A stretch of DNA of 12,317 bases, from positions 1 to 12,317 of the IMG/VR virus record IMGVR_UViG_2690316115_000015, one strand, 5' to 3'. Positions 1,335 through 2,150 of the stretch are shown in pieces. Under the pieces are notes generated by a model, which saw only the letters and a list, made by a program, of their open reading frames with translations, was not told the DNA's origin and did no database searches. Positions within the stretch are counted from its first letter, which is position 1. Each line of letters starts with the position of its first letter. A program made the position numbers and the translations under genes. This stretch comes from a virus. Taxonomy: Duplodnaviria > Heunggongvirae > Uroviricota > Caudoviricetes.

Positions 1335-2150
1335 ATGGCAAAGCTGGACTGGAAAAAGCTGGAGCAGGCATTTCGACGCGAACATGTCAAAACCGGCATA
1401 AAGCTTCAGGACTGGTGCCGTCAGAACAATATCAGTTATGACACGGCTCGGCGGTACATTAAACTGCGCAAACACTCCCCCAGAAATACAGAGAAAAGTG
1501 CGCAGAAAAATGCGCAAATTGATGATCAAAAAAGTGCGCAGAAATCTGACGGCAACTCCAGTCATGACGAGCCTTCAGGCGATGATGGTTGTGATGAAAA
1601 ATGCGCAAATTTGGCAGAAACGAAACGGACTCGTGGTTCCAGACTTTTGCCACCTTCAAATGCTTTTTCTCAGCGTAACACCCACGCCGTCAGACACCGT
1701 GGATACGCGAAGTATCTCGAGGCAGATAACCTCATAGATGATGCAGTCGGAATGGAACTTGCCGATGAACTGGTGTTTACCCGGGCCCGCGCACTTTCAG
1801 TAACAGGAACACTGAAAAAAATGTTCGCCGACCTGAAAGAGGCGGCTGACGTGGAAACCCGCGTTGCTCTGTACGACAAAATACTCAAAGCTGAACAGGC
1901 TCTTGACCGGAATATTGCCCGTATCGAGTCAATTGAACGCTCATTGCTGACGCTGGACGTTCTGGCTGAAACAGCACCAAAACTTCGTGCTGACCGGGAA
2001 AGAACCAACGCTGCCAGAGATAAACTCAGAGCGGAAACCGATATTCTGACCAGCCAGCGTCGGGGCGTTGTTACGCCTGTCAGTGACATCGTGTCATCGC
2101 TGCATGAAATGAGTAATTCGGGGAGACTGGATGACATTCCGGAAGAATGA
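1335..2150 (+). CDS. Terminase small subunit (putative)
   Basis: First gene of the operon, directly upstream of and overlapping the large terminase by 20 nt. The N-terminus (WKKLEQAFRREHVKTGIKLQDWCRQNNISYDTARRYIK) is basic and helix-turn-helix-like, as in DNA-recognition domains of small terminases. SD-like GAAGGTG precedes the ATG. It contains the TGCGCA repeat cluster listed below. Confidence 0.65.
   Translation: MAKLDWKKLEQAFRREHVKTGIKLQDWCRQNNISYDTARRYIKLRKHSPRNTEKSAQKNAQIDDQKSAQKSDGNSSHDEPSGDDGCDEKCANLAETKRTRGSRLLPPSNAFSQRNTHAVRHRGYAKYLEADNLIDDAVGMELADELVFTRARALSVTGTLKKMFADLKEAADVETRVALYDKILKAEQALDRNIARIESIERSLLTLDVLAETAPKLRADRERTNAARDKLRAETDILTSQRRGVVTPVSDIVSSLHEMSNSGRLDDIPEE
1461..1614. 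repeat. Cluster of five A-flanked TGCGCA-core repeats inside the small terminase gene (candidate pac / terminase recognition site)
   Basis: Read directly from the sequence: AAACTGCGCAAAC (~1461-1473), AAAAGTGCGCAGAAA (1494-1508), AAAATGCGCAAATT (1507-1520), AAAAAGTGCGCAGAAAT (1529-1545), GAAAAATGCGCAAATTTGG (1596-1614). Each has the palindromic core TGCGCA flanked by A-runs. Confidence 0.5.

Follow-up and report, generated by a model that had tools for sequence, protein, structure and literature searches.

Introduction

The pac site of phage P1 covers 161 bp within the pacA gene and contains seven TGATCA/G hexamers with Dam sites; PacA, PacB, IHF and HU are required, and synonymous mutation of the hexamers lowers the titre about 9-fold (PMC10028697, where the classical pac work of Sternberg & Coulby 1987/1988 and Skorupski et al. 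1994 is cited). Here we analyse a stretch of 12,317 nucleotides of viral DNA (IMG/VR record IMGVR_UViG_2690316115_000015, positions 1 to 12,317; hereafter the window), in which terS, the gene of the small terminase subunit TerS, carries a cluster of TGCGCA hexamers just downstream of the part coding for a helix-turn-helix (HTH) domain. We propose that this array, together with one in-register TGATCA, probably serves for recognition in a pac site of P1 type.

Two other groups of systems invite comparison. P22 and Sf6, like the window phage, are headful, short-tailed temperate phages of enterobacteria with a P22-like portal, and their pac signal, like our candidate, lies within the TerS gene (gene 3 and gene 1, respectively). 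The P22 pac, however, is one asymmetric stretch of ~22 bp that lies midway through gene 3 and not a hexamer array, and the P22 gp3 and Sf6 gp1 families are unrelated to the TerS of the window. SPP1 and SF6 (pacL/pacR boxes, G1P) share with the window repeated short boxes at the 5′ end of the TerS gene, although in SPP1 the boxes reach into the promoter region. They also share an N-terminal HTH, carried on TerS rings at a spacing of about one DNA turn, and AT runs among GC steps, proposed to favour wrapping (PMC4737164).

Results

A hexamer array inside the small terminase gene

A preliminary description of the window, made from its sequence alone, had reported five TGCGCA-core repeats in the 5′ third of terS. 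The gene and the elements of the array are the following (positions in the window, codon phases relative to the terS start).

1335..2150, + strand: terS, small terminase, ORF (open reading frame) of 816 nt, 271 aa; classed by PHROG as phrog_370 'terminase small subunit' (E 1e-117); followed directly by terL, the gene of the large subunit TerL, with which it overlaps
1465..1470: hexamer 1, TGCGCA; codon phase 2, peptide L-R-K
1499..1504: hexamer 2, TGCGCA; codon phase 3, peptide S-A-Q; opens the 12-bp-period run
1511..1516: hexamer 3, TGCGCA; codon phase 3, peptide N-A-Q
1523..1528: in-register variant TGATCA, a P1-type hexamer with a GATC Dam site; 12 bp from hexamers 3 and 4
1535..1540: hexamer 4, TGCGCA; codon phase 3, peptide S-A-Q
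1541..1601: spacer of 61 bp from the left cluster to the distal copy; candidate cleavage region by analogy with P1
1602..1607: hexamer 5, TGCGCA, the distal copy; codon phase 1, peptide C-A-N

The repeats are real, and their clustering is far beyond chance. Half of the TGCGCA copies in the whole window (5/10) fall within these 143 bp (terS nt 131-273), and the extended form AAANTGCGCARA is confined, within the window, to the five array positions. In first-order Markov simulations of the window, more than three copies per any 150 bp were obtained in 0/300, a simulation with the local A-rich composition reached a maximum of three copies in 5000 trials, and for one given stretch of 150 bp a Poisson model gives a probability of about 7e-9. 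Tandem Repeats Finder independently reported a 12-bp-period array at 1492-1544. The five copies stood up to scrutiny, but the inventory had overlooked the TGATCA at 1523-1528; when it is counted in, successive hexamers are spaced by 34, 12, 12, 12 and 67 bp. Four consecutive 12-bp units thus form a left cluster, with the 1465 copy ahead of it and the distal copy 61 bp further on. The copy at 1523 holds the only GATC of the array, TGCGCA itself having no Dam site.

It is uncertain whether hexamer 5 belongs to the functional array. This hexamer with its context, CAAATTYGGCAGAAACGAAACG, is kept also in relatives of another helix and hexamer class (see below). The distal copy may be a separate DNA element, for instance close to where the cut is made, or the protein may constrain it as the conserved start of the TerS body. 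The distal context AAAAYTGCGCAAATTYGGCAGAAACGAAACG, with the peptide CAN(S/L)AETKR, is conserved across classes that differ in helix and left array, and was seen at 1602-1630 of the window, at 821-850 of the 933W-type locus L003 and at about 580-610 of the Salmonella locus L303, where the core reads TGCACA.

The hexamer is selected as DNA

One and the same DNA word is read in three codon phases in terS, 2, 3, 3, 3 and 1 from the first copy to the last. We resampled synonymous codons 5000 times, with the peptide of gene nt 121-330 held fixed and the codon usage of the locus itself. For the window, 0.57 ± 0.71 TGCGCA were expected versus five observed, and 0/5000 resamplings reached the observed number. 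In nine diverged lineages, the window included, 4-7 copies were observed versus 0.3-0.8 expected, a 6- to 18-fold excess over synonymous recoding, and in none of the nine did any of 5000 resamplings reach the observed number. As a positive control, the pac region of P1, defined by experiment, had the same type of excess (5 observed versus 1.7 expected). Because the codon phases are mixed and the copies exceed what synonymous resampling gives, the motif is under selection as DNA, not as peptide. The earlier proposal that the DNA motif constrains the peptide is therefore borne out.

Rather than a selected site, the array could be a functionless by-product of neutral replication slippage, or of a low-complexity KSAQ/KNAQ peptide in a disordered linker. 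The 12-bp period does equal four codons, the encoded segment is predicted to be disordered, and copy number varies by 12-bp steps among close relatives (5 in the window, 7 in PhiR12_3; in the 933W-type array, 4 versus 5 GATCAT units in L003 and L049). Slippage is probably the source of this variation, but it leaves the retention of the core unexplained: across its codon phases the hexamer encodes the unrelated peptides LRK, SAQ and CAN, it exceeds synonymous resampling in all nine lineages, and it persists in relatives with 40% protein identity whose linker peptides differ. The codon-phase and resampling results largely refute this explanation, which we consider improbable.

Architecture of TerS

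An AlphaFold2 model of TerS was built from a 21-sequence alignment. Its parts are encoded as follows.

1350..1457, + strand: N-terminal three-helix HTH, residues 6-41; helices 6-20, 24-30 and 35-41; pLDDT (the model's per-residue confidence score) 75-89
1437..1457, + strand: recognition helix YDTARRY, residues 35-41, the third helix, with A38-R39-R40-Y41 on it
1470..1691, + strand: disordered linker, residues 46-119; pLDDT below 50; highly variable and indel-rich in the family alignment
1731..2054, + strand: long helical hairpin, residues 133-240; helices 133-169 and 173-240; pLDDT mostly >90; best-conserved part of the family

The hairpin is presumably the oligomerisation core. The array begins three codons past helix 3, and the peptide that it encodes, residues 44-91, falls in the linker that AlphaFold2 leaves disordered. 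A DNA site would be tolerable inside terS because this linker accepts almost any sequence. In a Foldseek search of the PDB, the model matched generic coiled coils (best E 0.23), and phmmer of TerS against the PDB returned no TerS chain at E up to 10, noise aside. Sequence similarity to the TerS of SPP1 and SF6 is thus undetectable and, by Pfam, PDB phmmer and Foldseek, the TerS of the window stands outside the P22 gp3, Sf6 gp1 and SPP1 G1P families.

Co-variation of recognition helix and hexamer

About 290 loci were gathered from IMG/VR and GenBank phages; TerS protein matches came from Aeromonas, Dickeya, Pectobacterium, Erwinia, Citrobacter and Salmonella. The position of the array is constant across the collected loci, at gene nt ~110-300, right after the N-terminal domain. 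Conservation at the DNA level where the protein diverges, a check suggested in the preliminary description, was found: relatives at about 40% TerS identity (Aeromonas, Dickeya, Pectobacterium and similar hosts) have 5-8 TGCGCA at the same gene position, with differing linker peptides (AAQSAQSEVRKTAQSAQSAQ and similar). The copies of these distant relatives again occupy different codon phases and are 7-16 bp apart; over all arrays, 12 bp is the commonest spacing and most spacings fall between 7 and 16 bp. The layout varies, from 5+1 copies across 61 bp in the window and 5+2 in PhiR12_3 to a single cluster in distant relatives of the L064 group.

Absence of the repeats in close relatives, an objection foreseen at the outset, was encountered in part. 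In the 933W-type phages (~76% aa identity) the TGCGCA copies of the left part are gone, and in their place stand 4-5 YGATCA at an exact 12-bp period, together with a changed recognition helix (TARTRIK, versus TARRYIK in the window). Judging from these sequences, this is a specificity swap, not an absence of the array. YGATCA arrays of this kind (4-5 copies, exact 12-bp period, in terS) were located at 727-768 of L003, from the 933W-type phage P13374, and at 441-494 of L301, from a Salmonella prophage; each YGATCA of the 933W-type phages and of this Salmonella relative holds a Dam GATC, and the hexamer is that of P1 pac.

For each locus, the most frequent strand-collapsed 6-mer in terS nt 91-390 was retrieved, with no prior assumption on its sequence. 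This top 6-mer partitions by recognition helix. The count below uses nt 121-390 only, which excludes the helix codons, and 109 unique TerS N-termini, clustered at 70% identity.

Helix ARRY: TGCGCA in 31/31 unique N-termini, 7 clusters
Helix AKRY: TGCGAA/TTCGCA in 36/36, 3 clusters (Klebsiella RothD-like, Yersinia, Pasteurella)
Helix ARTx: YGATCA in 5/5, 2 clusters
Helix AIRKxAKK: TACGCA in 27/28, 3 clusters

Natural domain swaps separate the contribution of the N-terminus from that of the body. Locus L126 combines a RothD-like body (82% identity) with an ARRY N-terminus and has six TGCGCA, and in L162, L168, L171 and L172 RothD-like bodies with AIRKRAKK N-termini go with TACGCA. Among the loci compared, the hexamer follows the N-terminal domain, not the remaining terminase. 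The hexamer was also predicted from the protein sequence alone before the DNA was fetched, and the prediction was borne out for a Salmonella protein (P0063, ARTQIK), with five YGATCA at a 12-bp period, and for a Pectobacterium protein (P0082, AKRYIT), with six TTCGCA. The rule is not universal for every TerS of similar helix, because the more distant KRAKKHGW proteins (L288-L299) have no hexamer array, their top 6-mer being present in at most 4 copies. A one-residue code, in which R39 reads C and K reads A, was tried as well; it was weakened by P1, where an ARRY helix goes with TGATCA, and we kept the co-variation and dropped the residue-to-base code.

A Salmonella TerS with yet another N-terminus (…DWAKKYGW…) has an array of its own, TCCGTC twice and then GACGGA three times. 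This inverted array lies at 447-508 of L303, next to an N-terminal domain that reads …STLIDWAKKYGWIRKK, and points to another specificity class, in which binding would have two-fold symmetry. Both orientations of the hexamers occur in some relatives: TGCGAATTCGCA, and TCCGTC then GACGGA. In AKRY-type terS genes, an extra TGCGAA is formed by the codons of the recognition helix itself (xxT-GCG-AAx, A-K), at L089:565-570, L091:711-716 and L302:411-416 (gene nt 111-116); it could be a coincidence or an upstream member of the array.

These classes bear on a further explanation, that the array is a target of DNA modification or restriction, by host or phage, or is bound by a host nucleoid protein, with no relation to the terminase. 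TGCGCA is palindromic, in the style of type II sites, and the arrays of P1 and of the 933W-type phages hold GATC Dam sites. However, at the corresponding position sister lineages carry TGCGAA, TACGCA or TCCGTC, none of them a palindrome, and which motif is present goes with the TerS helix and not with the host genus. Under restriction pressure, such sites would be expected to become rarer and not to gather in one place. We regard this explanation as very improbable.

Comparison with P1 pac and PacA

P22, Sf6 and SPP1 had been put forward as models for the site; the nearest known system proved to be P1, by homology of the HTH and by the hexamer array. The TerS N-terminus aligns to that of PacA, TARRY(I/L) helix included (BLASTP E 7e-5), and a profile-sequence hhalign comparison gave E 2.8e-5 and 74% probability over 45 columns. 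PHROG assignments are reciprocal: the TerS of the window belongs to phrog_370 and also matches phrog_1711 (E 2e-6), and PacA belongs to phrog_1711 and also matches phrog_370 (E 5e-5). On the DNA side, the P1 pac sequence used matched P1 records at 100%. In the P1 RefSeq record (NC_005856), the pac cut sites (90804-90813), the IHF site and the flanking TGATCA/G hexamers are all inside pacA, with hexamers at pacA nt 194-233 and 324-352 and the annotated cut sites between the two sets.

The likeness extends to several features. In both phages the site is inside the small-terminase gene, just downstream of the part coding for the N-terminal HTH, the ~45 N-terminal residues of TerS and PacA being weakly homologous. 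Both arrays consist of 6-7 TG..CA hexamers about one helical turn apart (7-15 bp) and in mixed codon phases. The window copy at 1523 is literally the P1 hexamer TGATCA, and the 933W-type sister lineage has YGATCA through its left array.

The differences concern both the site and the proteins. The window core is TGCGCA, without GATC and without a Dam-methylation switch; one GATC per hexamer, absent from the window, is present in the 933W-type and Salmonella ARTQ-type relatives. The window has no recognisable IHF site: with at most one mismatch allowed, the consensus WATCAANNNNTTR had no match in 1440-1640, spacer included, and the IHF site of P1 pac itself has one mismatch to the consensus used. 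Copies are arranged 5+1 in the window or 5+2 in PhiR12_3, versus 4+3 in P1. Outside the HTH, no relationship links the 271-aa TerS, with its helical hairpin, to the 397-aa PacA, or the T4-like TerL to PacB, and the window phage is a short-tailed phage of Sepvirinae type with a P22-like portal, whereas P1 is a myovirus.

Regulatory and RNA signals

TerS, or another HTH protein, might bind the array for regulation, by an in-gene roadblock that autoregulates terS and terL or by timing late genes, the pac cut signal being elsewhere. The array does fall early in the packaging operon, inside the initial 270 nt of its first gene, and the co-variation argues for binding by the adjacent HTH only, not for the purpose of this binding. 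Against this, no promoter-like or terminator-like signal above chance was found in 1000-2200, and in P1, the sole homologue studied experimentally, the corresponding array serves as pac and contains the cut positions. TerS proteins are not known to act as transcription regulators. Regulation is a serious rival to a pac site; the P1 precedent makes it less likely, and we judge it unlikely.

At the RNA level, the repeats could act as an mRNA structure or as a protein-binding repeat that controls terS translation, since they are transcribed and their palindromic cores are able to pair mutually. Yet the fold of the region has a z-score of -0.88, with 32/200 shuffles folding at least as well, Rfam has no match in the window, and the occurrence of both hexamer orientations in some relatives fits recognition of double-stranded DNA and not of a single-stranded RNA motif. 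An RNA signal appears the least probable of the explanations that we considered.

Packaging genes and neighbouring features

The window matches Escherichia phage GER2 (Sepvirinae, Oslovirus) at 98.8% identity over the 1.1 kb tested, and the common 933W-type Shiga toxin (Stx) phages at about 92%, split in two pieces. It contains the start of the late morphogenetic operon, with terS, terL and the portal gene in succession; the two genes that follow terS are these.

2131..3837, + strand: terL, large terminase, 568 aa; PHROG phrog_2 and others
3837..5981, + strand: portal protein, P22-like; Pfam P22_portal at E 2.9e-131

Headful packaging is expected for this phage because T4 gp17 is the closest solved relative of its TerL (E 3.6e-8) and the TerL clade is labelled 'Headful (933W type)' (PMC7317114); the P22-like portal also belongs to the basis for this expectation. 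The PhiR12_3 record carries the annotation 'T4-like headful'. Neither TerS nor TerL of the window had a Pfam-A match at E up to 0.1, despite their clear PHROG terminase assignment and, for TerL, the similarity to T4 gp17, and precomputed Pfam domains were absent from 120/120 TerS homologues among the matches listed. Pfam therefore has a coverage gap for a very common prophage terminase.

Two candidate precedents were set aside. The coverage peak inside terS of the E. coli LF82 prophage Gally (PMC9928086) belongs to a TerS of Sf6 gp1 type and is a generic precedent only, and the end of the vB_EcoP_phi296 record inside terS comes from re-orientation by the annotator to start at terL, not from mapped ends.

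Between the lysis genes and terS sits a reverse-strand ORF of 204 aa (151-765, - strand) with a histidine-phosphatase domain (Pfam His_Phos_1, E 1.3e-6); the corresponding region of the GER2 record holds a CDS (coding sequence) annotated 'lipopolysaccharide core heptose(II)-phosphate phosphatase'. This ORF, which a stretch of 28% GC (1000-1100) adjoins, looks like a moron. At the right end of the window, a 45-bp tandem repeat (12106-12212) encodes collagen-like G-X-Y triplets, probably in a tail-fibre gene, and the GGACCT and CTGCCG 6-mer clusters at ~11547-12150 are of the same repeat kind.

Discussion

Clustering, selection at the DNA level, conservation, co-variation with the helix, and homology of the HTH to PacA together with the same gene-internal position make it probable that the TGCGCA array, the in-register TGATCA included, serves as the recognition element of a pac site of P1 type. 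The original suggestion of a repeat-built candidate pac site inside terS, bound by a TerS oligomer, gains support from these comparisons. We infer from them the physical binding of TerS, the triggering of packaging by this binding, the position and precision of the first cut, and the direction of packaging. The array would then be a pac site built from hexamers in the manner of P1, but its hexamer would differ, being blind to Dam, and so would the terminase that carries it. Neither a definition of the pac site of 933W-type or Oslovirus phages, or of their many prophage relatives, nor TGCGCA arrays in terS were found in the full-text literature searched, which left most subscription journals outside.

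Several observations weigh against a P1-type pac site. The homology to PacA is weak (E ~1e-5, 45 residues) and concerns the HTH only, the matches spanning ~45-100 N-terminal residues; TerL of the window and PacB are unrelated (best BLASTP E 3.8); and the array misses the IHF site and the per-hexamer GATC of P1. HTH and array are adjacent, so recombination linkage alone could hold the pair together, and the truly independent changes of helix and hexamer may be as few as four or five. P1 itself pairs an ARRY helix with TGATCA hexamers. Repeats near terS are not always read base-specifically, since the isolated DNA-binding domain of SF6/SPP1 TerS bound the pac repeats non-specifically (PMC4737164). 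For this TerS family, neither end-mapping nor binding data were found in the literature searched, and PhageTerm classed the 933W-like Stx2 phage Lys19259Vzw as 'Mu-like', with host DNA at its termini (PMC7946995). The class returned was neither cos nor a mapped pac and, at the least, does not argue for defined ends at another place; as a speculation, such host-DNA termini could, in a pac phage, instead reflect in-situ packaging from an unexcised prophage (lateral transduction). As for base-specific reading, the strict co-variation of helix and hexamer argues for it in the system of the window, unlike in SPP1/SF6.

If the array is a P1-type pac site, its use can be pictured as follows. A TerS oligomer would display several HTH domains about one DNA turn apart, a spacing that the 12-bp mode matches when compared with the SF6/SPP1 TerS rings (PMC4737164). 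Each HTH would read one hexamer in the major groove, successive grooves lying on one face of the DNA, and the runs of A5-7 between the GC-rich cores would favour bending, such that ~80-140 bp of DNA could wrap around or along the oligomer. Specificity would arise through the avidity of several HTHs for hexamers spaced by ~12 bp. The TerS-bound array would mark concatemeric phage DNA for the T4-like TerL, which would cleave for the first time within the array or close to it, with headful packaging to follow; if P1 is a guide, this cut might fall in the 61-bp spacer at 1541-1601.

As Dam sites are absent from the array except at 1523, initiation in the window lineage should be independent of the methylation state. 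The fully GATC-based arrays of the 933W-type phages and of the Salmonella ARTQ-type relatives may, by analogy, retain a P1-like Dam control, and packaging initiation in the common Stx phages may then be Dam-regulated as in P1; no such statement was found in the literature searched.

More broadly, the array seems to belong to a larger family of specificity cassettes, each made of an HTH and its array, that can be exchanged. A joint reading, which we offer as plausible while stopping just short of calling it probable, is that a portable cassette, a PacA-like HTH with a neighbouring in-gene array, is common to many temperate phages from Enterobacterales, Aeromonas and Pasteurella, the medically important 933W-type Stx phages among them, and is swapped as a unit between terminases that otherwise differ. 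Pac specificity would then be readable from sequence (ARRY/TGCGCA, AKRY/TGCGAA, ARTx/YGATCA, AIRKxAKK/TACGCA, WAKKYGW/TCCGTC), and the window lineage would have traded a Dam-sensitive GATC hexamer for a Dam-blind one, uncoupling initiation from methylation.

The pac site sets which DNA a headful phage packages, and hence where lateral or generalised transduction begins in a lysogen. With a pac signal readable from sequence, the start and direction of packaging would be predictable for thousands of prophages, as would the highly mobilised host genes on their flanks, including virulence or resistance genes beside Stx prophages. Terminase mosaicism would be explained as an exchange of recognition cassettes. 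The natural matched series of HTHs and hexamers would serve to study how a ring of weak HTHs gains specificity, a question left open by the SPP1/SF6 work, and would supply parts for engineered packaging specificity in transducing particles and phagemids, as already done with P1 pac.

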